64,000 nt of DNA, taken from assembly GCA_943350875.1 (NCBI GenBank), contig CALRAL010000002.1, positions 68,221 through 132,220 on the forward strand. Direction: 5' to 3'. The position numbers were made by a program, and so were the translations under genes. Source of the DNA: Candidatus Nomurabacteria bacterium (GTDB lineage: Bacteria; Patescibacteriota; Minisyncoccia; Phycocordibacterales; UBA9973). Positions 10,508 to 39,723 of this stretch are shown here, piece after piece. How positions within the stretch are numbered: the stretch's first letter is position 1; the number at the start of each line of letters is the position of its first letter. The notes below the pieces were generated by a model. The model did not search any database. It was not told the DNA's origin and saw only the letters and a list, made by a program, of their open reading frames with translations.

Positions 10508-10635
10508 CTCTCAAATGAGCTACAAAAACCACATTTCTGAAATACGAGATGTGGTTTTTTTTTATTTATACTACAAAACAATACGGTCGTCTTGTTTCAT
10601 AGTATACACAGGCAACGCCTGTGTATTTAATTTTG

Positions 10636-11033
10636 TGGAGATGCGGGGAATCGAACCCCGGTGCAGAAGGTTTTTACAAAGAAATCTACATACCTAGCGC
10701 ACTTTTTGGTTTAAATTGAAAAATTCTTAAGCGAGCCAAATATTTTTCAATCGATTCCTTTTGTTTCGAAAAAAAGTCAGGAAATTCTTTTCTCTATCCC
10801 GATTATATTATGCCTGCCCTCATATATCGGAAGTCTATGAGAGAGACACAAGCTTACGCTAAAGCGGAAACTTGAGCAAAAGCAAAGTCCTTCATACCGA
10901 AGTATGGAGAAGCGATTGCTTTTACTTTAGAAGCTAATTTTGCAATTAACATTTGAGCGAATTTTTATGAGATTACGCCCATGCTCAGTATGCATCAATG
11001 GTAAAAAGCCAACTGTCTATGCCTTGCATCCCC
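10636..11033 (-). ncRNA. ssrA: tmRNA (SsrA)
   Basis: 5' end GGGGAUGCAAGGCAUAGACAG... pairs with the 3' acceptor strand ...CAUCUCC-A and includes a G3:U70 wobble (alanine identity). A T-arm CGGGGTTCGATTCCCCG sits immediately 5' of the acceptor. An internal open frame ends ...FAFAQVSALA-TAA (stop at plus 10854-10856). smpB is immediately upstream on the same strand. Confidence 0.8.
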
Positions 11034-11046
11034 ATGAATTTTATTT

Positions 11047-11505
11047 TCAACGATCTTTAAAATCTCTCCTTAGCTCTCTATCTGTCTCCCGTTTTTTAAT
11101 AGTCTCGCGTTTATCATGCTTTTTCTTGCCTTTTACGAGGGCTATATCTATCTTTATCTTCCTACCTTTATTATACACTGACATAGGCACAATCGTCAAG
11201 TTTGTTTTTTCATTTTTTGCTAATTCTCCTATTTCTTCTCTAGTTAACAATATTCTCCTATTGCGTAATGGGTCATAATTCTTCGGTGCATTTTTGGGTT
11301 GATATGGAGGAATGTTGGCATTTATTAAAAAGATTTCTCCTCCACGCACAACAATAAAGGCTCCTTCGAGTGACATCTGTCCATTACGAACTGATTTAAC
11401 TTCACTGCCAAGTAGCTCAATACCCGCTTCGTATTTTTCCAAAATTTCATAATCAAACCTCGCTTTTCTGTTTTCTACATAATTAGACATATTTAATCTT
11501 AACAC
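11047..11505 (-). CDS. smpB: SsrA-binding protein SmpB
   Basis: NRKARFDYEILEKYEAGIELLGSEVKSVR and IPPYQ motifs. Confidence 0.9.
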   Translation of the reverse strand: MLRLNMSNYVENRKARFDYEILEKYEAGIELLGSEVKSVRNGQMSLEGAFIVVRGGEIFLINANIPPYQPKNAPKNYDPLRNRRILLTREEIGELAKNEKTNLTIVPMSVYNKGRKIKIDIALVKGKKKHDKRETIKKRETDRELRRDFKDR

Positions 11506-13552: not shown

Positions 13553-13559
13553 ATTGTTT

Positions 13560-13805
13560 ATGTTTAGAATATATGTGTTAAAAAGTTTAAAAAATGGAAA
13601 GAGATATGTTGGTTATACGAGTAAAATGTCTGAAAAAAGACTAATCGAACACAATTCAGGATCTAATGCTTTTACAAGACAAAATAGGCCTTTTGTGCTA
13701 ATCTATACCGAGGAATATAGTACAAAAACTGAAGCAATAAAAAGAGAAATTTTTTTGAAATCGGGACAAGGAAGAAAATTTTTAGATAAAATTATCCGCG
13801 TGTAG
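13560..13805 (+). CDS. small GIY-YIG nuclease-family protein
   Basis: IYVLKSLKNGKRYVGYT (GIY...YIG) motif; the stop codon overlaps the first bases of the downstream tRNA. Confidence 0.6.
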   Translation: MFRIYVLKSLKNGKRYVGYTSKMSEKRLIEHNSGSNAFTRQNRPFVLIYTEEYSTKTEAIKREIFLKSGQGRKFLDKIIRV

Positions 13806-13868
13806 CTCAGTTGGTAGAGCAATCCGCTTATACCGGATCGGTCCCACGTTCGAGTCGTGGCACGCGGA
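13796..13868 (+). tRNA. tRNA with anticodon UAU (Ile-like, reads AUA)
   Basis: Manual cloverleaf. Acceptor CCGCGTG/CACGCGG, D-arm TAGCTCAGTTGGTAGAGC, anticodon stem ATCCG/CGGAT with loop CTTATAC, T-arm CCACG-TTCGAGT-CGTGG, discriminator A, no encoded CCA. Confidence 0.7.
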
Positions 13869-13918: not shown

Positions 13919-15082
13919 TTGATATATAATAATTGTATGAGTTTTCTAAATAATTACGAAAGTAAACAAAAGGGTGGTAAAACTAATCAAGCTCCTGAAG
14001 GTATGACTATGGCTGAGATTCTAGCCAATAAGTCAGATAGTATTAATTTTGGTTTGTATCTAAAAACAGAAAGAACGGATCCAGCTTTAACAGAAAGACT
14101 TATTTCTGGAACTTTAAAAGATGGTGATATTAATGAATTAGAAGGGTTAAGATCAGTTTTTGCTAAAAAGATTGAAAAAGCGAGAGAACTTTCAGACTAT
14201 ATAAATGAAGAAAATGTTGTTTCATTGGCTGGTAAATCTCCTGGGGTTCAGAAGATTTTAAACCTAATGGTTCCAGCAAAAGCGGTAACTGTATTTAAGA
14301 ATATGTTTGAAAAGATGTCTATTACAGATGGAGCTACTTTTAGTACTATATCAAGTGCTATTACAACGCTAGAAGATTACAAAAATGGTAAATTGAAAGA
14401 TGTAGAAGATGGTGTTCAGTGCTTGATAGAGAAATATAGAATTAAAGATGAAGAAGCTTTGACCGAAGCTTTGCAAATAAAGAATAAAGCTAGTAGGGAA
14501 GAAGCCTTAGCAAAGATTGTGAAAGATGGACACGGCAAGATCAGGAAACTTTTTGACTGGATGACCGATGGTAATAGTGGATTCTTCAGAGATCCTTCCT
14601 TAATAGCAAAGGTGTCTGAATTAAATAAGAAAAAAGGTCAGATTGAAAAGGCTATTTTAGAAGTTAATAAGAAAATGAAATCTGTCGGGGAGGTTTTGGC
14701 TAGTTCTGTAAATAACAATCCAGATCTGTTGAATGCTTTTTCAAAAGAATTGATTGGTAAAAAGGTAGATAAAGATGGTAACAATAGTGCTTTCAAAGAT
14801 TTATATTCTGTCCCAGAAACAGAAAAGACTGAAGAAGAAATAATAAAAGAGATGCAAGTTAGTTTGGATAAAAAAATAAAAGATATGGGTGCTACTTGGA
14901 CAGCTAAAACTAAAAAAGAAAAAGATGATTATGTGAATACAGCGTTCAAGAATGACTATAAAGATGATTCCAAAAAAGAATACAAGAAAAAAAGCGGTTT
15001 TTGGAGTTTCTTCTTTAGTATGTTATTTGATAGTTTCGATAAAAAAGTTGATAGTATTGATAAAACTAAATTCAAATATTAA
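13919..15082 (+). CDS. Lys/Glu-rich hypothetical protein
   Basis: Long ORF with no recognisable motifs; start uncertain (several in-frame ATGs). Confidence 0.35.
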   Translation: MIYNNCMSFLNNYESKQKGGKTNQAPEGMTMAEILANKSDSINFGLYLKTERTDPALTERLISGTLKDGDINELEGLRSVFAKKIEKARELSDYINEENVVSLAGKSPGVQKILNLMVPAKAVTVFKNMFEKMSITDGATFSTISSAITTLEDYKNGKLKDVEDGVQCLIEKYRIKDEEALTEALQIKNKASREEALAKIVKDGHGKIRKLFDWMTDGNSGFFRDPSLIAKVSELNKKKGQIEKAILEVNKKMKSVGEVLASSVNNNPDLLNAFSKELIGKKVDKDGNNSAFKDLYSVPETEKTEEEIIKEMQVSLDKKIKDMGATWTAKTKKEKDDYVNTAFKNDYKDDSKKEYKKKSGFWSFFFSMLFDSFDKKVDSIDKTKFKY

Positions 15083-15099
15083 TATATAATACCTTTTAT

Positions 15100-15399
15100 A
15101 TGAATCAAACAATAAATAAAGAACTCTTAGAAAATTTATCTCTCATCTTAAAAGAGGGAGATATTGCAAAAACAAAGAATTTCTTAATTGAGAATTTCAA
15201 ATCTTTTCCTGAGTCAGTTCAGGACGAAATAACTATGGCATTTATGTCTGAAGCCATTATTGATGAGGCTAATAGGATAGATGCGGTGACAGAAATGCAA
15301 AAACAAGGCTTAGAAATGATGGCAAGTCTAGAAAAAATAAAATCTTCTTTAGAAGATGAACTCAAAGCTATAGACCTCACTCAAGGATTAAAGAAATAA
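15100..15399 (+). CDS. small acidic hypothetical protein
   Basis: ORF followed by a GGATAG..CTATCC hairpin plus T-run terminator at 15475-15498. Confidence 0.3.
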   Translation: MNQTINKELLENLSLILKEGDIAKTKNFLIENFKSFPESVQDEITMAFMSEAIIDEANRIDAVTEMQKQGLEMMASLEKIKSSLEDELKAIDLTQGLKK

Positions 15400-15522
15400 T
15401 TTTGTTTTCTATTTTTTCGCTTTAAACCACTCGAAAATACTGTTTGCAAGAGGTAAAAAAATCATAATTTTAAGGATAGTTTAGCCTATCCTTTTTTATG
15501 TTCATTTTTACGAGTTATCCAC

Positions 15523-15553
15523 TTTACACCGGGGGACTGTTCTCCTGTATAAT
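15523..15553 (+). promoter_or_regulatory. putative promoter (TTTACA-19-TATAAT) for the membrane protein-nrdJ-adenosyltransferase unit
   Basis: Hexamers located 20-50 nt upstream of the ATG at 15574. Confidence 0.3.
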
Positions 15554-15573
15554 GATCTAACGATTAAAAAATT

Positions 15574-16110
15574 ATGAAAAATTGGCTAAAATTTGTCATC
15601 GGTTTTGGGTGTTGTCTTTTGCTCCGGCTTGTGCCTTTTCGTGCGCCAAATATCGAGCCAATATTAGCGACTCAGATGCCTTTCAGTAAAGTTTACGGAG
15701 CTATCTTCGGATTTATTTTTGGATTTTTCAGTATTATTATTTATGATTTAATAACAGTTCATTTTGGCTTATGGTCTTTAATAACCGGAATGATTTATGG
15801 GCTACTTGGAATAATAGCCACTTCTTATTTTAGAAAAAAAGAAAACCCCAGTAGATGGGATTATGCTTTGTTTGCGGTGTTTGGGACTTTACTCTATGAT
15901 GCACTGACTGGTCTCACTATCGGTCCGCTATTTTTCCACCAATCTTTCATAAATGCACTTACTGGACAAATACCATTCACCTTTCTCCATCTATTAGGTA
16001 ACGTTTCGTTCTCTGTGATTTTAAGCCCAGCAATTTATAATTTTATTTCAAGAAATAAAAAGTTAGAAGCAGAATCCATTATTAATATTTTTAGTCCTAA
16101 AACAATTTAA
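15574..16110 (+). CDS. polytopic membrane protein, ECF-transporter S-component-like (putative vitamin/cobalamin uptake by context)
   Basis: About 6 TM helices, ~180 aa. Appears co-transcribed with the AdoCbl-dependent RNR and the cobalamin adenosyltransferase. The function call is inferred from context only. Confidence 0.3.
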   Translation: MKNWLKFVIGFGCCLLLRLVPFRAPNIEPILATQMPFSKVYGAIFGFIFGFFSIIIYDLITVHFGLWSLITGMIYGLLGIIATSYFRKKENPSRWDYALFAVFGTLLYDALTGLTIGPLFFHQSFINALTGQIPFTFLHLLGNVSFSVILSPAIYNFISRNKKLEAESIINIFSPKTI

Positions 16111-16114
16111 CTCT

Positions 16115-18409
16115 ATGAAAAAGATAGAAAAAATTCCAAAAGCTGAATTATCAAAAATAAAATCAATCAGAAAAAGAAGTGGAGAAGTCATCCCTTTTGA
16201 TTTAGAAGTTGTGGTGAGGGCTGTTTCCAAAGCTTTTGAAGTTTCAGGGGAAGGTGGGGAAGATGAGTCTAGAATTGTGGCAAATAATGTTTTCAAAAGT
16301 CTTTTCAAATTACGTTCTGATTTATTGAAAGATAGAAAAGGTGTGCAGTTCTTGCCGACTGTCGAAGTGATGCAGGACTTGGTGGAGAAGGAATTAATGA
16401 ATGCTGGTTTTACTGATACTGCCAAGAAATATATTTTATATAGAAGCAAACGTTCCGAACTCAGAGCTACTTTTGGCCCTGTGCCAGAGGAAATAAAAAA
16501 AGCAGTGGAAGAATCCAGTAAATATTTCTACAGTCCATATTCAGAATATATTTTCTATCAATTTTATTCACGATGGGTACCAGAGTTAGGACGCAGAGAA
16601 ACTTGGATAGAAACCATAGACAGATATATGGCCTATATGAAGGAAAATATGGGTAATAAATTAACCGAGAAAGAGTACGAAGATGTAAGGCAAGCTATCA
16701 TAAATCAGGATATTTGCCCTTCTATGCGACTTTTATGGTCTTCGGGCAAGGCATGTCGTAATTCAAATGTCTGGGCTTATAATTGCTCATATATCGCTCC
16801 TACTTGTTTTCAAGATTTAGGGGAAATTATGTATATTTTGATGTGTGGAGCAGGACTAGGATTTGCCGTGGAGTGGGAAAATGTCCAACAATTTCCTCAG
16901 ATCAAAAAACAAGTAAAAGAAAAATCATCTATTCATCTCGTAGAAGACAGTAAAGAAGGCTGGGCTAATGCATTTGTTTTGGGACTCAAGACTTGGTTTG
17001 ATGGTAAGGATATGAAGTTCGATTATTCTATGATTCGTCCTGCAGGTGCGCGTCTTGAGACAGCTGGAGGTAGAGCTTCTGGACCACAACCGTTGATGGA
17101 TTTAATGGAATTTGCAAGAACAAAGATTTTATCTAAACAAGGTCGTCGTCTTTCAAATATGGATATGCATGATGTGATATGTCAGATAGGGATGATCGTG
17201 GTAGCAGGGGGAGTCAGACGTAGCGCCCTCATCTCTCTGTCTGAACTTGAAGATACAGAAATGCGTGATTCGAAGAAAGGACAATTCTATGTAAATGAGC
17301 CACAACGTTCGATGGCAAATAATTCTGCGGTTTATAGCGCCAAGCCTTCAGCCGAAGAATTCTTGGAAGAATGGACTGCCTTGGTAAAGTCTGGTTCTGG
17401 TGAACGTGGAATATTTAACAGAGGAGGATTAGAAAAACAATTGCCAGCTCGCAGATGGGAAGCTGTAAAAGATGAAAGGCAATTAGGGCTTAACCCTTGT
17501 GGAGAAATTTATCTACGTTCAAAACAATTTTGTAATTTGACGAGTATTGTTATCCGTCCAAAAGATACGATAGTCACCTTAAAAAGGAAAATGGAGTTAG
17601 CAACATTGCTCGGTACTTATCAATCCACTTTGACAAACTTTGGTTATTTATCAAAGAAATGGAAAGAGAATTGTGAAGAGGAGAGGTTGCTCGGAGTATC
17701 ACTCACTGGATATTATGACAATCCGATTATTCGTAATGACAAAGTGCTAGATATTTTGAGAACTGATGCTATTGAGACAAATAAAAAATATGCAAAGCGT
17801 TTTGGGATAAATGCTTCGACAGCTATCACTTGCGTAAAACCACATGGGAATTCCGGTCAACTTTTAGGGGTAGGTTCCGGTATGCACCCTTGGTTTGCCC
17901 CATATTTTATCCGCAGAGTTCGTATTTCTCATACTGATACTTTGCTTCAAATGGCTCGTGACCAAGGAGTACCTTGTTTGCCAGAAGTTGGACAATCTGC
18001 GGAATCTGCGACAACTTTCGTATTAGAATTCCCGGTCAAAGCACCAGAAGGGGCAATATTCAAAGATGAAGTTTCTGCCCTTGATTTGATGAAAGAATGG
18101 AAAAGACTCAAGGAACATTTTGTGGAGCATAATCCTTCGGCTACGATATATGTCGGTCCTGAAGAATGGCTCGCAGTAGGGAATTTTGTTTATGAGAATT
18201 GGGATGTAGTTGGAGGGCTTTCTTTCCTACCACGATCTGAGCATGTATATCAACTTGCTCCTTATGAAGCTATTACTAAAGAAGAATATGAAAAACGTTC
18301 CAAGGCTATTGGTAAAATAGATTTCTCTAAACTTTCTCATTATGAAGCTATCGACAATACGACTGGGGCAAAAGAATTCGCTTGTGTGTCTGGCGTTTGC
18401 GAAATATAA
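16115..18409 (+). CDS. nrdJ: class II adenosylcobalamin-dependent ribonucleotide reductase (monomeric), with N-terminal ATP-cone
   Basis: ATP-cone (RKRSGEVIPFDLEVVVRAV), NPCGEIYL catalytic-cysteine motif, C-terminal Cys pair. No NrdB/NrdF partner is nearby, and a cobalamin adenosyltransferase is adjacent. Confidence 0.75.
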   Translation: MKKIEKIPKAELSKIKSIRKRSGEVIPFDLEVVVRAVSKAFEVSGEGGEDESRIVANNVFKSLFKLRSDLLKDRKGVQFLPTVEVMQDLVEKELMNAGFTDTAKKYILYRSKRSELRATFGPVPEEIKKAVEESSKYFYSPYSEYIFYQFYSRWVPELGRRETWIETIDRYMAYMKENMGNKLTEKEYEDVRQAIINQDICPSMRLLWSSGKACRNSNVWAYNCSYIAPTCFQDLGEIMYILMCGAGLGFAVEWENVQQFPQIKKQVKEKSSIHLVEDSKEGWANAFVLGLKTWFDGKDMKFDYSMIRPAGARLETAGGRASGPQPLMDLMEFARTKILSKQGRRLSNMDMHDVICQIGMIVVAGGVRRSALISLSELEDTEMRDSKKGQFYVNEPQRSMANNSAVYSAKPSAEEFLEEWTALVKSGSGERGIFNRGGLEKQLPARRWEAVKDERQLGLNPCGEIYLRSKQFCNLTSIVIRPKDTIVTLKRKMELATLLGTYQSTLTNFGYLSKKWKENCEEERLLGVSLTGYYDNPIIRNDKVLDILRTDAIETNKKYAKRFGINASTAITCVKPHGNSGQLLGVGSGMHPWFAPYFIRRVRISHTDTLLQMARDQGVPCLPEVGQSAESATTFVLEFPVKAPEGAIFKDEVSALDLMKEWKRLKEHFVEHNPSATIYVGPEEWLAVGNFVYENWDVVGGLSFLPRSEHVYQLAPYEAITKEEYEKRSKAIGKIDFSKLSHYEAIDNTTGAKEFACVSGVCEI

Positions 18410-18418
18410 TTATAAATT

Positions 18419-18976
18419 ATGTTATATACAAGGAAAGGTGATGGTGGTACAACTAAAACCTTTGGGTGCGATCAGAGAGTTTCAAAGAGCTCTAATATCG
18501 CTGAAGCCTTGGGTTCTCTTGATGAGATCAATTCTTTTCTTGGTTTGCTAAAAGTCAAATCTGGAAATATGTCTTTAGACTTGCCTTCGGGAACAGTTTT
18601 GTTTTCCGCAAATATTGATCGAATTCAACAAGATCTGTTTATAGTTCAGGCCGAACTTGCCGGTGCAGATAAAAAAATCTCTCCAGAAAAAGTTGTCTGG
18701 CTTGAAGGAATAATCGATGGTATAGAAAAGATGCTTCCACCTATTAAAACTTTCTTTGTTTCCGGGGGCACAGAACTTGCGACTTTGTCTGACATTGCGC
18801 GTACCATTTGTCGTCGAGCTGAGAGGCGAGTGGTGGGAGTGACAGAAGAAGGTAAAATAACAATTAGTAAAGAAACTTTGGCTTATTTGAATCGTCTTTC
18901 CAGTGTTTTATATGCTTTTGCTCGTATTTTTAACCATATGGGAGGAATCAAAGAAGAAGCTCCAAAATATGATTAA
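18419..18976 (+). CDS. PduO-type ATP:cob(I)alamin adenosyltransferase
   Basis: YTRKGDGGTT N-terminal signature and ~185 aa size. Confidence 0.8.
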   Translation: MLYTRKGDGGTTKTFGCDQRVSKSSNIAEALGSLDEINSFLGLLKVKSGNMSLDLPSGTVLFSANIDRIQQDLFIVQAELAGADKKISPEKVVWLEGIIDGIEKMLPPIKTFFVSGGTELATLSDIARTICRRAERRVVGVTEEGKITISKETLAYLNRLSSVLYAFARIFNHMGGIKEEAPKYD

Positions 18977-19034
18977 GTTATCCACATTGAGATTTTGTAA
19001 TGTAGATGTATGATGTAGAAGTGTTTAACAAATA

Positions 19035-19200
19035 AATAGGTTCATATTGGGGAAGTGAGGTGAAAGTCCTCCACAGTGCCGCTACGGTAAGTCCGATTTT
19101 GATTGGACAAGTCCGAATACCAATATGATATGTAGTCCCGAGCAGGAATTTAAATACTTAACGTATTTTTAGCCAAATGACTCCTCGGAAGGAGTTTTTT
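19035..19200 (+). promoter_or_regulatory. cobalamin (B12) riboswitch with terminator/SD-sequestering expression platform
   Basis: GGGGAAGTGAGGTGAAAGTCCTCCACAGTGCCGCTACGGTAAGTCCG matches the conserved GGGAA..GGTGAAAnTCC...CCGCTAC.GTAAG core. A downstream AGTCCCGAGCAGGAA B12-box-like segment follows. Hairpin GACTCCTCGGAAGGAGT plus T8 includes the AAGGAG SD, 10 nt before the ATG at 19206. Confidence 0.7.
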
Positions 19201-19205
19201 TATTT

Positions 19206-19634
19206 ATGAAAACAGAAAAATACAAAATTATATTTATAACCGTCGTCTTCATTTTAGTGTTGGTTTTATTATATTCATATAAAAATATCTCTGTTTCTGT
19301 TGAAAATAAAGGCATGAAGAATGTAGATTCTTCTACAGGATCTAAAAAAGAAAATATTTCTGCAACTTTGATTGTTGGGGGAAAAAAAATACTTTTAACA
19401 TCCCAAATAAATTCATCTTTATATGATGTTCTTTTAGAAGCAAAGAAAAATAATCAGATAAATTTTACTGGTAAAGTTTACCCTTTGCTTGGTTTTTTTG
19501 TAGATAGTATTGATAATTTGAAAAATAAAGATGGAAAGTATTTGTTTTATTATATAAACGGTAAAGAGGCATCTGTCGGTGTTTCTAATTATATACTCAA
19601 AGACGGGGACGTGATTGAGTGGAAATTAAAATGA
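19206..19634 (+). CDS. membrane-anchored DUF4430-domain protein (transcobalamin/intrinsic-factor beta-domain-like; putative B12-binding)
   Basis: N-terminal TM anchor, then LFYYINGKEASVGVSNYILKDGDVIEWKL, characteristic of DUF4430. Lies downstream of the B12 riboswitch, with an ATGA overlap to the next gene. Confidence 0.6.
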   Translation: MKTEKYKIIFITVVFILVLVLLYSYKNISVSVENKGMKNVDSSTGSKKENISATLIVGGKKILLTSQINSSLYDVLLEAKKNNQINFTGKVYPLLGFFVDSIDNLKNKDGKYLFYYINGKEASVGVSNYILKDGDVIEWKLK

Positions 19635-21460
19635 AAAAGATATTTTTAGGATTTAGTATTTTTATGAGCTTATTTGTGTTTAATTTTACTTATGCGGAAG
19701 ATGTGGTTCCAGATCCAGTTCTTACTAGCAGTATTACTATCCGTGATGGAGGCAATGTAATTTTTACAGGTGTTATTCCAATCAATTCAGATAGTACTGT
19801 TTTGTCTTTATTAAATGATGCTGACACTTTGAGCCCTGATTTTAATGTTTCTAATATACAGAATTTTTCTTTTGGGGCTTACTTAAAATGCATAACAGAT
19901 ATAAACGGAGAAAGATGTGATAATTGGCAGTATGCAGTTAACAATCTTTATACTTTTTCAAGTATAGATCAATATAAATTAAATGGGGGAGAAAACGTTT
20001 ATATATATTTTGGACCACAAAACAAAGTTATCCTTAGCTCAAATAATATAAATACTAACAATATTTTGACTGTTATAGCGCAAAAATATAATTATCAAAA
20101 TAATACCTGGGAGATAAGGACTGATGTAACTGTTGGTTTAACACAACCAGATTTACAACCCAACCCAAATAACAATTGGTTACCACCATTAGAAATAAAA
20201 ACTAATTTAGTTGATGAAAATGGTCAAGTTACTTTTTCGTCAATATCTGTTGGTTCTTATGATGTTGGAGTTCAGGAAGATGGGTATTTCCCTACCGAAA
20301 AACTAGATGTTATTTCTGCTCCTGTGATAGAGCATCATAGCTCTGGCGGTGGTAGAGCTTATATACTACCGCCAAAGCCAGTTTTTTCTACGCAAAACGC
20401 GATTAATTATTTAAAAAGTTTACAAGTAAATGATGGATCTTTTGGTGGATCTGATATGTACACTGATTGGGTGGGGATTGCTTTGTCTGCCGGAGGGGTA
20501 GCAGATAGTTCTACTAATAGTATAATTTCATATTTTAGTTTACATCCTCTAAAAAGTTCACTTTTGACTGATATTGAACGTAGGGCAATGACACTTCTAG
20601 CCTTGGGGCAGGATCCATACTCATTTAATAATACAGATTATATTTTTTTAATTTTGAAGAATTTTGACGGAATACAATTTGGTGATAAAGATCTAGTGAA
20701 TGATGATATTTTTGCTCTCATTCCACTTAGCGCTTCAGGATATAAAATAGATGATGAGGTTATTTCAAAAGATATCAATTTTATTCTTTCGAAACAAAAG
20801 ACAGATGGTTCTTGGGAAGAAAGTGTAGATGTGACTTCCGCCTCGATCCAAGCATTATCTTTATTTAACTCTTTGCCTACTGTTTCAGACGCGCTTTCAA
20901 AAGCTAGCCTTTATGTTATGAATTCACAAAAGGATGATGGTGGTTGGGGGAACGTTTATTCTACTAGTTGGGCGGTGCAAGCAGGGAATGCCTTAAATAT
21001 TATTTATACCAAGAATGGACATACAGGACTTGATTATTTTGCAAATAATCAGATAAGTGATGGGGGAGTTTTGTCACTAAATGAAACTTTAGAAAATAGA
21101 GTTTGGGCCACGAGCTATGTTATCCCTGCTATGCTTAGCAAAACTTGGAATAGTATTTTTCATCAAGTTCTTAAACCAGTAAAAGTAGATACTAAAGATG
21201 TCGTTTCTAAGATAGTAGAAAATAAATTAAAAGAAAAAGTTGTAGATAAAAAGATAGATAATATAATAAGTATTATAAAAAAAGTTAAAAAAGAGATTGT
21301 TGTTAGTCCTGAAACAGAGAAAATAGAAACAAAAAATATGCTTACAGCTTCAGCCATAGAAAGCCAGACGCGTGTTACTCAAAATGAAACTCCTTCGTTT
21401 TGGCATGAACTTTTTGCAGGAGTAGGGGATATCTTGAGAGTTCTGCATCTTCTTCGATAA
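19631..21460 (+). CDS. secreted protein: N-terminal DUF4430-like domain plus alpha/alpha-toroid (prenyltransferase/terpene-cyclase-like repeat) domain; putative cobalamin-capture protein
   Basis: Signal peptide (MKKIFLGFSIFMSLFVFNFTYA). A second DUF4430-like pattern (NWQYAVNNLYTF...YKLNGGENVYIYFG). Repeated DGSW/DDGGW/DGGV motifs typical of alpha6/alpha6 toroid repeats. Translationally coupled to the upstream DUF4430 gene. Confidence 0.5.
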   Translation: MKKIFLGFSIFMSLFVFNFTYAEDVVPDPVLTSSITIRDGGNVIFTGVIPINSDSTVLSLLNDADTLSPDFNVSNIQNFSFGAYLKCITDINGERCDNWQYAVNNLYTFSSIDQYKLNGGENVYIYFGPQNKVILSSNNINTNNILTVIAQKYNYQNNTWEIRTDVTVGLTQPDLQPNPNNNWLPPLEIKTNLVDENGQVTFSSISVGSYDVGVQEDGYFPTEKLDVISAPVIEHHSSGGGRAYILPPKPVFSTQNAINYLKSLQVNDGSFGGSDMYTDWVGIALSAGGVADSSTNSIISYFSLHPLKSSLLTDIERRAMTLLALGQDPYSFNNTDYIFLILKNFDGIQFGDKDLVNDDIFALIPLSASGYKIDDEVISKDINFILSKQKTDGSWEESVDVTSASIQALSLFNSLPTVSDALSKASLYVMNSQKDDGGWGNVYSTSWAVQAGNALNIIYTKNGHTGLDYFANNQISDGGVLSLNETLENRVWATSYVIPAMLSKTWNSIFHQVLKPVKVDTKDVVSKIVENKLKEKVVDKKIDNIISIIKKVKKEIVVSPETEKIETKNMLTASAIESQTRVTQNETPSFWHELFAGVGDILRVLHLLR

Positions 21461-27096: not shown

Positions 27097-27120
27097 TATT
27101 AAGCATTCTAGCACAATATC

Positions 27121-28251
27121 ATGGATAATCCTTTTAATAAAATTTTTAGCTCCGTTTCTGGTATCTTTAGTGGGGGCTCGAGCGATAGCGCAGTCGGCAT
27201 TGATATAGGTTCTTCAGCTATTAAAATAGTAGAGGTAAAGAACAAAAAAGGTAAAGCTATGCTCGAGACTTATGGTTCTATCGCTTTGGGTCCTTATGGG
27301 GAAGAAGACATCGGGCGAGTGACGAATCTTCCAGCGGAAAAAGTAATAGAAGCTATAAAAGAAGTTCTAAAAGATTCAGGAGTAGCGACGTCTTCGGTTG
27401 CTTTATCTATTCCTATTCAATCTAGCCTAATTTTTCCGATAGAACTTCCAGCCCAAGTCAAAGAAAGCGAGATGAGTTCTATCGTTCCTACAGAAGCTCG
27501 CAAATATATTCCACTTCCTATTTCCGAAGTATCGCTTGATTATTTCGTTTTGCCGAAGAAAGAATCTTCTTTTGAAGAATCAAATAATCCAGACTTACCA
27601 AAAGCTCCCGAGATAAAAACAGAAGTTCTTGTTGTTGCTATCCAAAATGATGTGATTTCTAAATATCGCTCTGTTGTTTCTCAATGCAATCTAGACGCTG
27701 GATTTTTTGAAATCGAGATTTTTGCTTCAGTTCGATCAAATTTCAACCATGAATTATCTCCTGTAATGTTGCTGGATTTCGGAGCATCACGTACTAAGCT
27801 CTCATTAGTAGAATTTGGCATGGTTAAAAACTATCATACTATCAATCGAGGTGGAGCTGACATAACAGATGCGATTTCTAAATCTTTAAGTATTCCTTTT
27901 TCAAAAGCAGAAGAAATGAAGAAAGAATTTGGTCTTTTGGAAAATGAAAAGGAAAAAAGCTTGTCTGATATCATAAAAGTTCACATTGACTATATCTTTT
28001 CAGAAACAAATAATGTACTATTAGGGTATGAGAAGAAATATGACCGTACTATAAGCAAAGTGATAATAACTGGTGGCGGATCCCTCCTTAAAGGATTGAA
28101 AGAAATGGCGGCAAATAACTTCCATGCAGAGATAGAAATAGGGCGTCCATTCAGCAAAATCGGTGCTCCTGAGTTTTTAGAAAAGGTCTTGGATGCTACT
28201 GGTCCAGAATTCGCAGTTGCTATCGGTCTCGCTTTACGTAAATTACAATAA
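27121..28251 (+). CDS. pilM: type IV pilus assembly ATPase-fold protein PilM
   Basis: Actin-like fold signature AVGIDIGSSAIKIVEV; operon position. Confidence 0.8.
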   Translation: MDNPFNKIFSSVSGIFSGGSSDSAVGIDIGSSAIKIVEVKNKKGKAMLETYGSIALGPYGEEDIGRVTNLPAEKVIEAIKEVLKDSGVATSSVALSIPIQSSLIFPIELPAQVKESEMSSIVPTEARKYIPLPISEVSLDYFVLPKKESSFEESNNPDLPKAPEIKTEVLVVAIQNDVISKYRSVVSQCNLDAGFFEIEIFASVRSNFNHELSPVMLLDFGASRTKLSLVEFGMVKNYHTINRGGADITDAISKSLSIPFSKAEEMKKEFGLLENEKEKSLSDIIKVHIDYIFSETNNVLLGYEKKYDRTISKVIITGGGSLLKGLKEMAANNFHAEIEIGRPFSKIGAPEFLEKVLDATGPEFAVAIGLALRKLQ

Positions 28252-28268
28252 GTGAGATAATTAGGTAG

Positions 28269-28901
28269 TTGAAAGTTATCAAGTTTATAAAATCTATGGA
28301 ACAGAATTTTCAAACATCATTCATACCCAAAAAGCCAATAGTAGAGAGCCGAAGCACTCCTTCAAAGCCTATTAGTTTTTCTTTAGTTATCTCTATTTTT
28401 GCTTTATTCGCTATGATCCTTTCTTCAGGTGGTCTTTATTTTTATAAAGATATTTTGAATAAAAACATTGTTCAGATGAAAAAAGATTTGGATATTGCCA
28501 AGAACCGTTTTGAACCATCAAAGATAAACCAGCTCCAAGACTTAGACAAACGTCTCAATGCTTCAAAAAATATTTTATCGAACCACATTGCTATTTCTCC
28601 TGTTTTTAAAGCTTTGCAAGATGTGACGATGAAAACTGTTCGTTATACAAAGTTTAGTTATAGTTTTGGTAGCGATAAAGATATGAAAGTCACAGTAAAG
28701 ATGAGTGGAGTTGCTCTAGGCTACAAGTCTATCGCTCTCCAATCAGATCTTTTTACGGAAGATAAATATCTGATTGATCCTGTCTTTTCTAATCTCACTC
28801 TAGACGACAAAGGCAATGTTCTTTTTGATCTTAGTTTTGGAGTGAGTCCTGATTTTATAGATTATAATAAAGTGCTCTCTACAGCAGAGCCTGCGAATTA
28901 A
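28269..28901 (+). CDS. pilN: PilN-like pilus assembly protein (single N-terminal TM)
   Basis: Bitopic topology; position after pilM. Confidence 0.5.
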   Translation: MKVIKFIKSMEQNFQTSFIPKKPIVESRSTPSKPISFSLVISIFALFAMILSSGGLYFYKDILNKNIVQMKKDLDIAKNRFEPSKINQLQDLDKRLNASKNILSNHIAISPVFKALQDVTMKTVRYTKFSYSFGSDKDMKVTVKMSGVALGYKSIALQSDLFTEDKYLIDPVFSNLTLDDKGNVLFDLSFGVSPDFIDYNKVLSTAEPAN

Positions 28902-28903
28902 TT

Positions 28904-29515
28904 ATGTTTAGATTTATTATACCAGCCATTTTAATAGGAGTTGCAATTGCTGGTTTTTTTATGTTTGCTAAACCTTTTTACGCTGATATAACTAATTTGA
29001 AAAATCAGGTGATTTCTTACAATGAAGCGCTTAATAATTCAAAAGCTCTTGAGAATGCCCGAGATGAATTGACCAAAAAATACAATTCTATCGACCCAGA
29101 GAATTTAGCCAAGATAGTCAAATTCTTACCGGACAACGTTGACAACGTGAGGCTCATTCTTGAAATACAAAATATAGCTTCACCATACGGCATGTTGATA
29201 AAAGATATAAAATATGACACAGCTGACAAAAATAATACTCAGAAATTAACTCCACTACAGTTGTCACAACAAGCCGACATAAAACAATCCTCCAAAGATT
29301 ATGGGACATGGAATCTAGAATTCTCTACAGAAGGTACTTATACCAACTTTTTAAATTTTATAAAAGACTTAGAGAAGAATCTACGAATTGTCGATGTATC
29401 TTCTATCGAGTTTTCTTCTGATCTAGATACAAGTAAAGGTAAGGGTGCTAGCCCTGCATCATCCGATTCTTACAAATATGCTTTTAAAATTAAAACTTAT
29501 TGGTTAAAAAATTAG
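28904..29515 (+). CDS. pilO: PilO-like pilus assembly protein
   Basis: N-terminal TM plus coiled coil; gene order. Confidence 0.45.
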   Translation: MFRFIIPAILIGVAIAGFFMFAKPFYADITNLKNQVISYNEALNNSKALENARDELTKKYNSIDPENLAKIVKFLPDNVDNVRLILEIQNIASPYGMLIKDIKYDTADKNNTQKLTPLQLSQQADIKQSSKDYGTWNLEFSTEGTYTNFLNFIKDLEKNLRIVDVSSIEFSSDLDTSKGKGASPASSDSYKYAFKIKTYWLKN

Positions 29516-29516
29516 C

Positions 29517-29984
29517 ATGGCAAAAAGTATAAAAAATATAATAATATCAGTAGTTATTGTAGCTATTTTAGTGGCGAGTTATATTTTCTTTATTAAAAAA
29601 GCTCCAGAACAAGCATCTCTCATTTCTTCCTCTGGTTCCATTTTACCTGGGGCAAATTCTACAACTACTTCCCCACAAGGTGTTCAAACGCAGGATTTTC
29701 TTTCTGTATTACTCAATGTTAAAAGTATAAAGTTGGACGATGCTATATTTTCTAAACCAGCTTTTCTTGCTTTACATGATTCTAGTATTTTACTCGTGCC
29801 TGATCAAAGTGCTGGCAGACCTAATCCTTTTGCTCCAATAGGTACTGACCCCGTTGTACCGCCCGTAGTACCTGTAGTCTCAGAAATTATTCCAGAAGCT
29901 CCTGTAGTCACCACTCCGATAAAATGCAAATTGCCAAAAGTAATAGATACCGAAACCAATACTTGTGTCAACCCAAAGCCTTAA
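29517..29984 (+). CDS. PilP-like/hypothetical pilus assembly protein (TM, Pro/Val-rich C-terminus with Cys pair)
   Basis: Gene order only. Confidence 0.3.
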   Translation: MAKSIKNIIISVVIVAILVASYIFFIKKAPEQASLISSSGSILPGANSTTTSPQGVQTQDFLSVLLNVKSIKLDDAIFSKPAFLALHDSSILLVPDQSAGRPNPFAPIGTDPVVPPVVPVVSEIIPEAPVVTTPIKCKLPKVIDTETNTCVNPKP

Positions 29985-29992
29985 TAAAGATA

Positions 29993-31746
29993 TGAGTTTT
30001 TTAGAAGAATTAGCTAAAAATGGCGTAATCGAAGAAAGCCAAATAGGAGAAGTAAAAAATCTTGCCAAGGAAAAGCACGAGGGTGATATTAATGATGCAC
30101 TTTTAGAGATGGGTATTGCTGAAGAAGTATTACTCTCCCAAAGAGGTGATTTTTTCAAAATACCAACTAGGAAAGTAGATGCCAAGAAGATATCTTTTGA
30201 TGCATTGAAATACATCTCAGAAGACTCAGCCACATATTATCATTTTGCGCCTTTTGGTTTGAAAGATGGAGTACTTGAGATAGGGGTGACGGATCCAGAA
30301 AATATCGGAGCTATGGATGCACTCCAATTTATCTCTGCTCAGATAGGTATTCCATTTAAGATTTTTCTTATATCAAAGACAGATTACAAAAATATCATGG
30401 AGAGTTATAAAGGCATATCAAATCAAATTGGTAGTGCTTTAGACGAGATAAATCAAGATACTAATGGAGACAGTAAAAGTTTAAACGATACCACGGATTT
30501 GAGTAAAGAAATCAAAGATGTAAAGCCAGGTGAAGAATCCAAAATAGTAGAAGATGCTCCAGTGATAAAAATTGTGGCGGTGGTGTTGAGGAATGCTATT
30601 GAAGGAAATGCTTCGGATATCCATATAGAAAATACTGGTGAAAAAGTAAAAGTGCGCTACCGTGTGGATGGGGTGCTTCATACTACGATAGTTTTACCTA
30701 CGAATGTTTACAGTGGAGTAGTGGCTCGTATTAAGATATTGTCCAAGCTTCGTCTAGATGAAAAGCGTAAGCCTCAAGACGGGTCTTTTTCTGCAAACAT
30801 CGATGGTAGGAAGATTGATTTTCGTGTTTCCACTATGCCTGCGTATTATGGTGAAAAAGTTGTAATGCGTATTTTGGATTCTGAAAAGGGAGTCAAACCA
30901 CTTGAAGAACTTGGTCTGTCAAAAAGGAATTTAAATTTAATCAAAGAGGCTCTAGCCAAACCTTACGGTCTGATTCTCATCACAGGGCCTACGGGTTCTG
31001 GTAAATCAACCACACTGTATTCTATGATGAATGGGCTCAATAAAGAAGAAAGCAACATCGTATCCCTCGAAGACCCAGTTGAATATCATATGCCAGATAT
31101 CAATCAATCTCAAATGATGCCGGAAATAGGTTATACTTTTGCTTCTGGACTCCGTTCGATACTCCGTCAAGACCCAGATGTGATCATGGTGGGGGAGATT
31201 CGTGATAAAGAGACGGCTCAGCTCGCCATCCAAGCTGCTTTGACTGGTCACCTAGTGTTTTCTACTCTCCATACAAACGATGCCATCGGAGCTATTCCTC
31301 GTCTGATAGACATGGGGGTGGATCCATACCTGATTGCTCCGACTTTGATTTTATCTGTGGCTCAACGTTTGGCCAAGATGACTTGTGCTTCATCAAAAAA
31401 GCTCGTGCCGATGGACGACAGCATTAAAATGCAATTAAAAGACCAGTTTAAAGACCTGCCAGAGGAATATAAGAAAGACATTATAGTTAAAAATGAAATG
31501 TATGAAACTGTGCCTTCTATGGAGTGTCCTTCTGGTACTCGTGGGCGTATCGCTGTCTATGAGATGTTTAAAATAGATAAAGAAATGCAAGCAGTTATCC
31601 TTAAAAACCCAATCAATTCCGAGATATACAAGACTGCGCGCAAGAGCGGTATGCTTATGATGAAAGAAGATGCTATACTTAAAGCAGTGGATGGAATTAT
31701 CCCATTTACCGAAGTTTATAATTTTAGTAGTAGTGAAACTGATTAA
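29993..31746 (+). CDS. pilB: type IV pilus assembly ATPase PilB (GspE family)
   Basis: N-terminal GSPII_E_N-like domain, Walker A ITGPTGSGKSTTLYS, Asp/His boxes, tetracysteine motif. Confidence 0.85.
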
Positions 31747-31798
31747 AATATTAACAATATTTTAATCAAAATAGTTTTATTATATAATAAAAAAATAT

Positions 31799-32206
31799 AT
31801 GGAAGGACAAAAAAAGAAAATTTTAATAGTAGACGATGATAGTTTTTTACTTGACATGTATGCTTTCAAGTTCAGTCAGAATGGATTTGAAGTTTACACG
31901 GCGCTCGATGGTTTGAAGTGTGTAGATAAATTAAAAGACGGATTGTCTCCCGACATCATCTTGATGGATTTGATTATGCCAGAGATGGATGGCTTTGAGA
32001 TGTTGGAGACAATAAACAAAGAGAATCTTTCTCCGAATTCTGTAAAGATAGTCTTGTCAAACAAGAGCCAACAGTCAGACATCGATCGTGGTAATGAGCT
32101 CGGAGTGTCTGGATATATAGTCAAGGCGAATTCCACTCCAGCCGAAGTTATCAGTCAGGTGGTAGATGTTTTGGCAAAGAAACTTGTAAACGGAGCTAAT
32201 AAATAA
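31799..32206 (+). CDS. single-domain response regulator (PilH-like REC)
   Basis: ILIVDDD...DLIMP...K receiver pattern. Confidence 0.7.
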   Translation: MEGQKKKILIVDDDSFLLDMYAFKFSQNGFEVYTALDGLKCVDKLKDGLSPDIILMDLIMPEMDGFEMLETINKENLSPNSVKIVLSNKSQQSDIDRGNELGVSGYIVKANSTPAEVISQVVDVLAKKLVNGANK

Positions 32207-32216
32207 TTATTTTAAT

Positions 32217-33275
32217 ATGGATTATAAGCAAAAATTGGAAGAGTTTATTTTAAGTGTTATTCACGAAAGTGGGTCTGATTTGCATTTGGGTGTAAGTAGA
32301 GTACCAGCTATCCGAGTGTCAGGAGAATTGATTTTTCTATTGAAAAATGAAGTTTTGACCAAAGAAGACATGCTGGGTTTCTTGTCCCAAGTCTTGGACA
32401 AGAAAAAAATAGATAAATTTATGGAAGATCAAGAGATTGATTTCTCTTACGATTTCCAAGGAGAGACGCGACTTCGGGGTAATGCATTTTTCTCCAAAGG
32501 TTTGATCAATATGGCTTTGCGTTTAGTACCAAAGGTGAAGACTTTAGACGAGCTTCATTTACCTCCGATTATTGCCGATATGACTCGCAAGAAGCAAGGT
32601 TTTTTCTTAGTCGTCGGTCCTGTTGGACAAGGTAAATCCACTACTTTATCTGCAATGGTGAATTTGATAAATAATGAACAAGCTAGGAACGTCGTGACGA
32701 TCGAAGATCCAATAGAATATGTTTATGTACCAAATAAATCCATTATTAGTCAGCGAGAAGTTGGTATTGATACAAAGGATTTCAATTCTGCTTTAAAATC
32801 TGTTTTTCGTCAAGATGTCAATGTTATAATGATAGGCGAAATGCGTACTCCAGAGAACATTGCTACAGCGGTGACGGCTGCCGAGACTGGACATTTGGTT
32901 CTTTCCACTTTACATACCAACAACGCTGCTCAAACTATAGACAGGATTATTGATGCTTTCCCGGGCAATCAGCAAGACCAGATCCGTTCTCAACTGGCCT
33001 CATCTTTGATCGGTGTTTTCTCTCAAAGATTGATTCCAAGGGTTGCAGGTGGACTTATTCCAGCCTATGAACTACTACTCAATAATAATGCAGTTTCCAA
33101 CCTTATTCGCGAGAAACGTACCCATGAGATAAATGTGGTGATAGAGACAGGTACTGAGTCTGGGATGGTGGACCTTAATCATTCACTTCTAGAGCTTGTG
33201 CGAACAGGAGAGATATCACTCGAGAGTGCTTACCAATATTCTATGAATCCCCAAGCTCTCCAAAAAATGTTGTAA
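32217..33275 (+). CDS. pilT: twitching-motility/retraction ATPase PilT
   Basis: Walker A VVGPVGQGKSTTLSAM; PilT-size (352 aa); AIRNLIRE-like motif NLIREKRTHEI. Confidence 0.8.
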   Translation: MDYKQKLEEFILSVIHESGSDLHLGVSRVPAIRVSGELIFLLKNEVLTKEDMLGFLSQVLDKKKIDKFMEDQEIDFSYDFQGETRLRGNAFFSKGLINMALRLVPKVKTLDELHLPPIIADMTRKKQGFFLVVGPVGQGKSTTLSAMVNLINNEQARNVVTIEDPIEYVYVPNKSIISQREVGIDTKDFNSALKSVFRQDVNVIMIGEMRTPENIATAVTAAETGHLVLSTLHTNNAAQTIDRIIDAFPGNQQDQIRSQLASSLIGVFSQRLIPRVAGGLIPAYELLLNNNAVSNLIREKRTHEINVVIETGTESGMVDLNHSLLELVRTGEISLESAYQYSMNPQALQKML

Positions 33276-33394
33276 TCCCGTACGAAGTCATTCAGTTAGT
33301 TAAAGTAGTAATAAGTGGTATAATGATTTATGTTTTATAGTCGTTATTAATAAAATTAATTATGGAAATCTACTGATTTCCTACTTCGTTCGGG

Positions 33395-34603: not shown

Positions 34604-34711
34604 AAAATTCAAACCCCTCCTGACCTCCCCTTGTCAGGGGAGGAAAAATATAAAAGTCCCCCTGACAAGGGGGATATAGGGGGTTGTATTCTAAATCTGT
34701 GCATAACTTTC

Positions 34712-34739
34712 TTGCCCTTATTTTTATTATGTTATAATT
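34712..34739 (+). promoter_or_regulatory. promoter TTGCCC-16-TATAAT upstream of pilA
   Basis: Sequence match to -35/-10 with 16-nt spacer. Confidence 0.35.
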
Positions 34740-34851
34740 ATCACATTAGAAAAGTATTTCAGCCAAAGGCTGATCCGCCTCGGGCGGAAAAAATTAAGTC
34801 GAAAAAATTATTATTAGCTTCCGCCATACGCGGATAAATTATAAATAAATT

Positions 34852-35295: not shown

Positions 35296-35321
35296 TTTCC
35301 GTAAATATTCTTGTGAACACA

Positions 35322-35348
35322 AAAAACACCTCGAAAAGGTGTTTTTTG
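35322..35348 (+). terminator. rho-independent terminator after pilA
   Basis: AACACCTCGAAAAGGTGTT hairpin plus T-run. Confidence 0.55.
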
Positions 35349-35397
35349 TGTTATACTGTACAAGTAGTCTATATTATTAATATTAGAAAAATAAATT

Positions 35398-35940: not shown

Positions 35941-35960
35941 AAACTTGATATACTTTAACC

Positions 35961-37888: not shown

Positions 37889-37891
37889 CTT

Positions 37892-38512: not shown

Positions 38513-38515
38513 TTT

Positions 38516-39112: not shown

Positions 39113-39116
39113 AAAT

Positions 39117-39722: not shown

Positions 39723-39723
39723 A

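Follow-up and report, generated by a model that had tools for sequence, protein, structure and literature searches.

The closest described counterpart of the locus presented here is the nrdJ-cbrS-cbrT-pduO cluster of Lactobacillus delbrueckii. Its S-component CbrT, predicted as part of an ECF system by Rodionov et al. (2009) and characterized by Santos et al. (2018; PMC5997447; PDB 6FNP), carries both cobalamin and cobinamide. The gene upstream of cbrT encodes a 149-aa DUF4430 protein, and the L. delbrueckii locus reads DUF4430 - CbrT - PduO. A second point of reference is BtuM of Thiobacillus denitrificans, a solitary S-component-like transporter of B12 that is also a decyanase (PMC6072759; PDB 6FFV, 8OVV). 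On the extracellular side, transcobalamin, intrinsic factor and haptocorrin combine a PF01122 alpha/alpha barrel with DUF4430, which is the C-terminal, cobalamin-binding beta domain of the transcobalamins (PMC4350170). Finally, class II cobalamin riboswitches (RF01689, AdoCbl-II, clan CL00101) are typically found upstream of B12-acquisition genes.

In the window, by which we mean the entire 64-kb stretch of DNA that was analyzed, region 15514-21460 is probably a two-unit vitamin B12 (corrinoid) acquisition-and-use locus of a Patescibacteria-type genome. The first unit comprises three genes on the forward strand, whose coordinates and tight spacing agree with the original prediction: one for a 178-aa CbrT-like ECF S-component (15574-16110), the predicted corrinoid-binding and translocating subunit; nrdJ, for a 764-aa adenosylcobalamin-dependent class II ribonucleotide reductase of the monomeric RTPR type (16115-18409); and pduO, for a 185-aa PduO-type ATP:cob(I)alamin adenosyltransferase (18419-18976), with intergenic gaps of only 4 and 9 nt. 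The second, on the same strand, would consist of an AdoCbl-II riboswitch (19032-19129) and the genes for two predicted exported proteins, namely a 142-aa DUF4430 protein (19206-19634) and a 609-aa DUF4430-toroid protein (19631-21460; its ORF opens at a GTG at 19619). The original prediction had seen here a minimal B12 salvage/use operon: the observation was confirmed and its interpretation is supported with three qualifications, on the extent of the unit, on transport and on the genome as a whole (see below). The unit is more than minimal, since it extends into the riboswitch-controlled pair of genes, and B12 transport is a prediction. The S-component, RTPR-type NrdJ, PduO and DUF4430 families are common to this locus and the Lactobacillus cluster. 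The two differ in gene order (here cbrT-like, nrdJ, pduO, riboswitch, DUF4430, DUF4430-toroid), in the additional toroid-containing secreted protein, in a riboswitch that we propose to act only on the capture genes, and in the host, which is Patescibacteria-type and not a Firmicute. Literature searches on cobalamin, NrdJ or ECF transport in Patescibacteria (CPR, Parcubacteria) yielded no description of such a locus, and the CPR genome papers that we checked make no mention of it.

The 178-aa membrane protein has six helices in its predicted structure (AF2 pLDDT 87), which bears out the earlier suggestion, made from size and topology, of the small (~20 kDa) six-TM fold of ECF S-components. It is a marginal match to PF07155 (28.4 bits against a gathering score of 26.7), a model that is matched by 29 of the 31 members of its family, with PF12822 and PF20221 each matched by eight. 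Its top Pfam and NCBIfam matches bear riboflavin-transporter names, and the structures most like it are RibU, FolT and 4HUQ_S, an entry whose deposited name is uncharacterized protein. These names and structures would favor an S-component for a different micronutrient, such as riboflavin, a queuosine or thiamine precursor, or a nucleoside, which lies beside nrdJ only by inherited gene order. We consider this quite improbable. PF07155 also matches 16 of 20 genuine CbrT-family proteins, and hence the family name is no guide to the substrate. Pairwise phmmer searches of PDB sequences with the single protein recovered nothing at E<=10. The family profile, run with hmmsearch against 177,635 PDB sequences, recovered CbrT (6FNP_A) as its sole match (E 0.0054); many other S-components were present among the sequences searched, yet none of the RibU, FolT or ThiT sequences was matched at E<=10. 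A comparison of the S-component and CbrT families with hhalign gave 97.2% (E 3.6e-11) over 150 columns, and homology to L. delbrueckii CbrT is seen at the profile level only, with identity of only about 21-23%. Invariant positions common to both families include R18, P25-N-[IV]-[EQ]-P29, GxWT, Y75, F135, H139 and G142-N143. TM1 of S-components has an AxxxA-type small-residue motif that contacts EcfT; in helix 1 of the present family G10 is near-invariant and C14 invariant (G-x-x-x-C), a pair that does not line up with the A-x-x-x-A of CbrT when the families are aligned by hhalign. By fold and Pfam the protein is thus an ECF S-component and not a member of a clearly unrelated family. With CbrT as the only sequence match among solved structures, the earlier proposal of a candidate corrinoid importer is supported, B12 being the predicted cargo.

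Gene linkage bears on the same alternative. Relatives were located at 403 places in a collection with one genome per species. The S-component gene adjoins nrdJ in 77 of the 80 best loci, and pduO comes next in 52 of the 62 that could be evaluated. Many loci also retain the neighboring FtsH and RecG genes, indicating general synteny, as would be expected if an S-component for another micronutrient had simply been inherited in place. However, the linkage outlasts both rearrangement (NrdJ - TM - riboswitch - DUF4430 in two loci) and replacement, surviving mixed combinations of variants of NrdJ (about 85% versus 58% identity) and of PduO (about 75% versus 45%). Further, linkage of these four families recurs independently in Lactobacillus, which belongs to a distant phylum, such that the S-component gene here keeps the company that cbrT keeps there, namely nrdJ, pduO and a gene of the DUF4430 family (cbrS). 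In L002 and L011, where the S-component gene lies away from nrdJ, its neighbors are unrelated and offer no alternative functional clue.

The enzymes encoded by the other two genes of the first unit are those that had been proposed. The 764-aa protein shows the Pfam domains ATP-cone, RNR_Alpha and RNR-II_ins_dom, the first at its N-terminus (residues 17-115) and the last (PF21995) at 29.2 bits against a gathering score of 27. Its closest PDB match is the L. leichmannii RTPR (1L1L; E 3e-44, residues 142-741 aligned), with homology along the full length of RTPR, including the B12-dependent insertion domain (1L1L, PF21995). Residues N460-P-C462-G-E464 and C473 align with N406, C408, E410 and C419 of RTPR, giving an NPCGE thiyl-radical loop with the N-x-C-x-E motif and the active-site cysteine. 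The C-terminus has a putative redox pair, C757-x4-C762 (...FAC757VSGVC762EI, from the sequence), which we take to be equivalent to C731/C736 of RTPR. The class II assignment therefore holds against a class I enzyme on the strength of the Pfam domains, the RTPR alignment and the NPCGE loop. TIGR02505, the RTPR equivalog model, is by far the top-scoring NCBIfam family, despite a score (298.4 bits) that does not reach its cutoff of 340.05. Unlike RTPR, the protein has an ATP-cone, with which no part of RTPR is aligned (residue 142 of the query and residue 26 of RTPR are the first to be paired). By the NCBI threshold NrdJ is a divergent, ATP-cone-bearing relative and not an equivalog. No second ribonucleotide reductase was recognized among the ORFs of the 64-kb window upon inspection of the ORF list, as distinct from a family scan. 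The adenosyltransferase assignment of the 185-aa protein holds equally: it matches PF01923 (Cob_adeno_trans; 151 bits, gathering score 24) and TIGR00636 (PduO_Nterm; 151.7 bits, cutoff 108.45), both over its full length, and is 32% identical to the PduO adjoining L. delbrueckii CbrT.

An EcfA-EcfA'-EcfT module, which energizes ECF S-components, was sought by applying a regular expression for Walker A and the ABC signature to the ORFs. This identified no ABC-signature ATPase in the 64-kb window, and the left contig flank encodes a ribosomal operon, SecY, Adk and Map and no ECF module. In 1.19 Mb of related loci the expression matched 11 ORFs. By inspection of N-terminal sequence and length these look like MacB/LolD-, FtsE-, ABC-F- and exporter-type proteins, one of them, of 739 aa, probably being no ABC ATPase at all; sequence inspection of the 11 showed no EcfA-like or paired ATPase within 10 kb in 80 loci. 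Claims on the genome as a whole, namely a sole ribonucleotide reductase, lack of an ECF module and nucleotide salvage, reach beyond the scope of the window. The locus could have the same function with an S-component that works alone, as do BtuM and solitary BioY, in reduced genomes devoid of an EcfAA'T module; binding, adenosylation as a metabolic trap and the extracellular capture proteins would then drive uptake. We regard this as less likely than not. S-component genes of group II usually lie apart from those for the module, and hence the lack of linkage says little; moreover, CbrT, the closest relative, requires the module. BtuM and the window protein have in common the small six-TM S-component fold and a role in B12 uptake, predicted for the window protein, which may likewise act without an ECF module; however, in sequence the family profile does not pick up BtuM, whose axial ligand is a Cys, at E<=10. 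BtuM also belongs to Gram-negative proteobacteria, where it adjoins btuB, and the Cys/His cobalt chemistry is described for BtuM.

Upstream of the first unit, an intrinsic-terminator-like hairpin and T-run (15472-15499, forward strand) marks the end of the preceding unit, with a stem AAGGATAG/CTATCCTT of eight pairs (three G-C), a 6-nt loop and a tail TTTTATGTTC; this accounts for the terminator earlier placed at 15475-15498, the hairpin with its T-run being found at 15472-15493. It is followed by the anticipated promoter-like element (15523-15553), read from the sequence as TTTACA (15523-15528), a 19-nt spacer and TATAAT (15548-15553), which our consensus scan missed because the spacer exceeds 18 nt. 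Abutting its -35 hexamer is a GTTATCCAC box (15514-15522), which is DnaA-box-like (TTATCCAC). This 9-mer occurs twice in the window, against an expectation of 0.22, both times inside the locus. The second copy (18977-18985) precedes a second promoter-like site, TTGAGA, 16 nt, TATGAT (18987-19014), which matches the consensus at 10 of 12 positions and is the top forward-strand site of the region in the consensus scan. Among the related loci, 52 of 77 have TTATCCAC in the 200 nt that precede the orthologous S-component gene, its total across 1.19 Mb being only 88 occurrences. The entire block of TTATCCAC, a -35-like hexamer, 17-19 nt and a TATAAT-like hexamer is kept upstream of that gene in 24 of 77 (e.g. 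L031, L033, L049, L053, L059, L064, L068 and L072). In the related locus L025, an Rfam scan matched the conserved leader that precedes the orthologous operon to no known family.

As stated in the original prediction, no cobalamin riboswitch precedes the three-gene unit; one sits immediately downstream of it, at 19032-19129. The aptamer scores 38.5 bits against the RF01689 gathering score of 36.5 (E 1.4e-6) and occurs at the same position in 26 related loci (nhmmer, E<1e-3); its structure is supported by compensatory changes at 17 of 28 predicted pairs across 23 orthologous sequences. It shares the aptamer core of the class and, as is usual there, precedes B12-acquisition genes, here predicted ones. 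It differs in a 22-nt insertion in P6 relative to the RF01689 model and in being situated inside the locus, 3' of B12-using genes that stay unregulated by it. Control of the three-gene unit by this riboswitch was rejected, as it lies downstream of the S-component gene in 26 of 26 loci (E<1e-3). The aptamer leads into an expression platform (19139-19203, forward strand), a terminator-like site in which the hairpin GACTCCTCGGAAGGAGTT (19179-19196), followed by a T-run, buries an AAGGAG ribosome-binding site; an alternative CCGAG/CUCGG pairing would free that site, and the MFE and centroid folds represent these two alternative pairings. The ATG of the DUF4430 gene follows the platform at 19206.

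The 142-aa product of that gene, membrane-anchored or secreted by virtue of a hydrophobic N-terminus, has a DUF4430 beta domain (PF14478, 59.6 bits against a gathering score of 23.8) and is predicted to be an extracellular corrinoid binder of the same Pfam family as CbrS; BLASTP detected no similarity to L. delbrueckii CbrS, the Pfam family alone being in common. The 609-aa protein (AF2 pLDDT 82), predicted to be a second corrinoid-capture protein, displays a signal peptide, a DUF4430-like beta domain, more beta domains and an alpha/alpha toroid, and 26 of the 55 loci that could be evaluated encode it 3' of the riboswitch. It thus resembles the transcobalamins in being exported and in uniting DUF4430 with an alpha/alpha toroid, but differs from the eukaryotic versions in its reversed domain order and extra beta domains. 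Its strongest affinities are elsewhere: Pfam SQHop_cyclase_C scores 35.4 bits, whereas its N-terminal DUF4430 (18.5 bits against 23.8) and PF01122 (Cobalamin_bind; 18.1 against 25) both fall below the gathering scores. The toroid profile matches squalene-hopene cyclases in the PDB and not transcobalamin, and terpene-cyclase and TED-domain toroids lead the Foldseek matches, with rat transcobalamin ranking 48th (E 5e-6). We therefore dropped homology to transcobalamin as a firm claim and retain it as a suggestion. These matches, along with public annotations as terpene cyclase or prenyltransferase, would also fit surface proteins other than corrinoid binders, for instance terpenoid- or glycan-related toroid enzymes or adhesins, which are incidentally regulated by B12. 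This we judge unlikely: a cobalamin riboswitch immediately precedes the genes in some two dozen loci, DUF4430 is both the cobalamin-binding beta domain of transcobalamin and the family of the cbrS product next to CbrT, several homologs bear precomputed PF01122 matches, and signal sequences are present with no terpenoid pathway context. The locus also corrects public labels, which name the toroid proteins terpene cyclase/prenyltransferase and many of the S-components hypothetical.

Building on the gene identities, the fold, the CbrT homology, the covarying riboswitch and the conserved linkage observed here, we infer what is transported and in which direction, how the capture proteins hand it over, how transport is energized and how the genes are regulated, as follows. 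The cbrT-like gene, nrdJ and pduO would be transcribed from the conserved promoter without a B12 sensor. The exported DUF4430 and DUF4430-toroid proteins probably catch scarce extracellular corrinoid and pass it to the S-component, which would bind it and carry it across the membrane via the toppling mechanism of ECF S-components, either docked on an EcfAA'T module whose genes lie elsewhere or by itself. PduO would then convert cob(I)alamin to adenosylcobalamin, with which the RTPR-type NrdJ would reduce ribonucleotides to deoxyribonucleotides, its ATP-cone probably providing allosteric on/off control. When intracellular cobalamin suffices, the riboswitch would fold and the terminator/sequestor hairpin would hide the ribosome-binding site, thereby switching off the genes of the second unit.

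The genomes of Patescibacteria (CPR) are minimal, these bacteria are believed to live at the expense of other cells, and little is known of how they acquire cofactors. The same gene set has already been characterized in Lactobacillus, and hence no new principle emerges; given the known equivalent in lactic acid bacteria, the locus is solid but unsurprising. As a distant relative of CbrT, its S-component offers a test case for whether S-components require an ECF module. We can envisage, as a speculation to which we give little credence, B12 import without an ABC motor in ultra-small bacteria of the Paceibacteria type, in which transcobalamin-like surface proteins under riboswitch control (DUF4430 and DUF4430-toroid) supply a lone CbrT-like S-component, PduO adenosylation traps the vitamin for the sole ribonucleotide reductase, and a DnaA-box-like operator ties the operon to the initiation of replication. 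If true, DNA synthesis in hundreds of such species would hang directly on the B12 of their neighbors or hosts. More generally, the locus provides a concrete, conserved route from the extracellular capture of B12 through import and adenosylation to deoxynucleotide synthesis, and predicts that B12 supply would limit DNA replication in these organisms, which bears on their cultivation and on models of cross-feeding in their communities.

The original prediction proposed a minimal B12 salvage and use operon, and its three open reading frames are borne out on the plus strand at 15574-16110 (178 aa), 16115-18409 (764 aa) and 18419-18976 (185 aa), with intervening gaps of 4 and 9 nt. The upstream terminator that it posited is present: at 15472-15493 a terminator-like hairpin and its T-run end the preceding unit. 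The promoter-like element is also present: TTTACA (15523-28) and TATAAT (15548-53) are conserved in related loci and escaped a consensus scan because of the 19-nt spacer between them. The G+C content of the window is ~31-41%, and the MAGs nearest to it carry Patescibacteria, Paceibacterota or Nomurabacteria labels. Upstream lie 387- and 99-aa ORFs without a family match (13919-15399), a small GIY-YIG nuclease ORF (83 aa, 13554-13805) that shares 10 nt with the beginning of a tRNA gene (13796-13868), and a minus-strand tmRNA gene (10633-11033) adjoining smpB (the pair spanning 10633-11505). Downstream, a ~13 kb ORF run (~27100-40200) looks type IV pilus-like by sequence alone, with PilB-, PilT- and PilC-like proteins, pilin-like N-termini and a prepilin-peptidase-like protein.

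The 185-aa protein scores 151 bits against PF01923 and 151.7 bits against TIGR00636 (cutoff 108.45), and is by these profile matches a PduO-type ATP:cob(I)alamin adenosyltransferase. The 764-aa protein, NrdJ, combines in Pfam terms an ATP-cone (residues 17-115), RNR_Alpha, the B12-dependent RNR insertion domain and the barrel; its top NCBIfam model is RTPR (298 bits, slightly below the equivalog cutoff of 340). Among solved structures, NrdJ is closest to the Lactobacillus leichmannii enzyme, a monomeric ribonucleoside-triphosphate reductase (1L1L; E 3e-44, residues 142-741 aligned), whose thiyl-radical loop and active-site cysteine align with N460-P-C462-G-E464 and C473; the C-terminal end additionally carries a C-x4-C pair. 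Judged by its domains and catalytic residues it is a class II adenosylcobalamin-dependent reductase, as the original prediction had it, and thus does not belong to class I. The fusion of an ATP-cone (16163-16459) to an RTPR-type, monomeric-class reductase sets it apart from L. leichmannii RTPR, which has no counterpart of the cone, the first aligned residues being 142 in the query and 26 in RTPR. The cone most resembles the one in an ATP-cone-bearing NrdB (5OLK, E 8.6e-15).

The 178-aa membrane protein, originally a candidate corrinoid importer on size and topology, is predicted with high confidence to fold into six helices (pLDDT 87), and profile searches now connect it to CbrT. Among 177,635 distinct PDB sequences, the sole match of a profile of its 31-member family was, over nearly the full length, 6FNP chain A (E 0.0054), the cobalamin-specific S-component CbrT of L. 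delbrueckii. Profile-profile comparison with a collected CbrT family gave 97.2% probability (E 3.6e-11, 150 columns), and the invariant positions of both families coincide: R18, P-N-[IV]-[EQ]-P after helix 1, G-x-W-T, Y75, F135, H139 and G-N. The 'riboflavin' family PF07155 matches 29 of the 31 family members; since it also matches 16 of 20 true CbrT proteins, its name says nothing about the substrate.

The original prediction missed half of the locus, namely a riboswitch and two exported-protein genes after pduO. An AdoCbl-II cobalamin riboswitch (Rfam; 38.5 bits, gathering score 36.5) lies at 19032-19129, 56 nt past the pduO stop, preceded by the best plus-strand promoter-like site of the region (18987-19014). 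On the 3' side of the aptamer, a plus-strand hairpin (19179-19196) contains an AAGGAG ribosome-binding site; a T-run comes after the hairpin, whose end lies 10 nt short of the ATG at 19206. Folding gives a second possible pairing, CCGAG/CUCGG, by which the AAGGAG site would be released. In 26 related loci the aptamer is found again at this position (nhmmer E<1e-3), and an alignment of 23 sequences has compensatory double changes at 17 of its 28 predicted pairs. Its predicted targets are the two exported-protein genes. The first (19206-19634) encodes a 142-aa DUF4430 protein (59.6 bits); this domain forms the C-terminal domain of vertebrate transcobalamins (PMC4350170). In the 609-aa product of the second (19631-21460), a signal peptide and a weak DUF4430-like N-terminal domain are combined with beta domains and an alpha/alpha toroid. 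A specific kinship of this toroid to transcobalamin is no more than a suggestion, as terpene-cyclase and TED toroids score higher and rat transcobalamin ranks 48th (E 5e-6). Public labels for the toroid family (homologues P0238-P0357), 'terpene cyclase/mutase' or 'prenyltransferase/squalene oxidase repeat' protein, are probably misleading given the context. The 3' end of the toroid gene convergently overlaps a 766-aa minus-strand ORF, read as recG from sequence, by 86 nt (21375-21460), and the overlapped C-terminal tail is predicted to be disordered (pLDDT <50, residues 532-595).

There is a precedent for this arrangement: ECF-CbrT transports cobalamin and cobinamide, and cbrT sits within an nrdJ-cbrS-cbrT-pduO cluster (Santos et al. 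2018, PMC5997447). On an L. delbrueckii contig, cbrT is preceded by a gene for a 149-aa protein, likewise of the DUF4430 family, and followed by that for a PduO with 32% identity to ours. The three-gene unit thus corresponds, in Patescibacteria, to a cluster already characterised in a Firmicute. The locus is a remote new addition to the known CbrT/NrdJ/PduO/DUF4430 type, from which it differs in its ATP-cone RTPR, toroid protein, riboswitch placement and promoter box. Our literature search found no paper describing this B12 locus in Patescibacteria. The original observation is hence confirmed, and its interpretation supported and extended.

Conservation of gene order was examined in the 80 best (L001-L080, with L006 counted as an overlap) of 403 stretches encoding S-component relatives in a scan of one genome per species. 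Here nrdJ adjoins the S-component gene in 77 of 80 loci (directly after it in 75, directly before in 2); a further contig stops just past the S-component gene, and two loci have no nrdJ. PduO follows in 52/62 evaluable loci, the DUF4430 and toroid genes in 26/55, and a riboswitch was detected in 24/55. Much of this synteny is inherited, as the locus is often bordered by FtsH and RecG as well. Identity to the window falls into two classes for both NrdJ (~85% and ~57-59%) and PduO (~60-79% and ~41-48%), found in all four combinations with gene order unchanged, which suggests that modules were replaced or recombined in place. As these mixed classes keep their order, and Lactobacillus links the same families, we argue for functional coupling.

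Most likely, the exported DUF4430 and toroid proteins would capture corrinoid outside the cell, the CbrT-like S-component, by homology and context, would carry it through the membrane, PduO would make adenosylcobalamin and NrdJ would make dNTPs under activity control by its ATP-cone, with cobalamin feedback acting via the riboswitch on the capture genes alone. That the reductase operon lacks a B12 sensor fits an essential enzyme. No candidate ABC ATPase or EcfT was found in the window, beside the 80 best loci or in the left flank of the contig; such absence of adjacent genes is normal for group II S-components. CbrT alone is inactive in E. coli; BtuM works alone. The CbrT-like protein would operate either ECF-coupled or solitary. 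NrdJ may be the only RNR, and may represent the only B12-dependent step.

In most related loci, a leader of 100-140 nt separates the conserved promoter from the S-component gene (e.g. L005:305-406, L025:9900-10000, L013:8999-9101). This leader holds a conserved TAGTAGTTGCGAAACTATGCAACTA, which can be read as repeated TAGTT[G/T]C heptamers or as an inverted repeat, together with another TTATACAC box and a GC-rich hairpin that runs into T residues. An Rfam scan of the L025 leader gave no match; the element may act as an attenuator, as a cis-regulatory RNA of a kind not yet described, or as a protein operator. In the window and ~6 loci the leader is short and lacks the TAGTAGTTGCGAAACTATGCAACTA-bearing segment. 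At the promoters themselves, the 9-mer GTTATCCAC occurs on the plus strand at 15514-15522 and 18977-18985, its only two copies in 64 kb (expected 0.22), with one copy abutting the -35 hexamer at each B12-locus promoter. It includes the DnaA-box core TTATCCAC. Of 77 related loci, 52 have this core no more than 200 nt upstream of the S-component gene, and it occurs only 88 times on both strands of 1.19 Mb of such loci. Because DnaA controls nrd genes in E. coli, a putative DnaA-type operator is a reasonable reading of this motif. Such an operator, or another at GTTATCCAC, may couple dNTP supply to replication.
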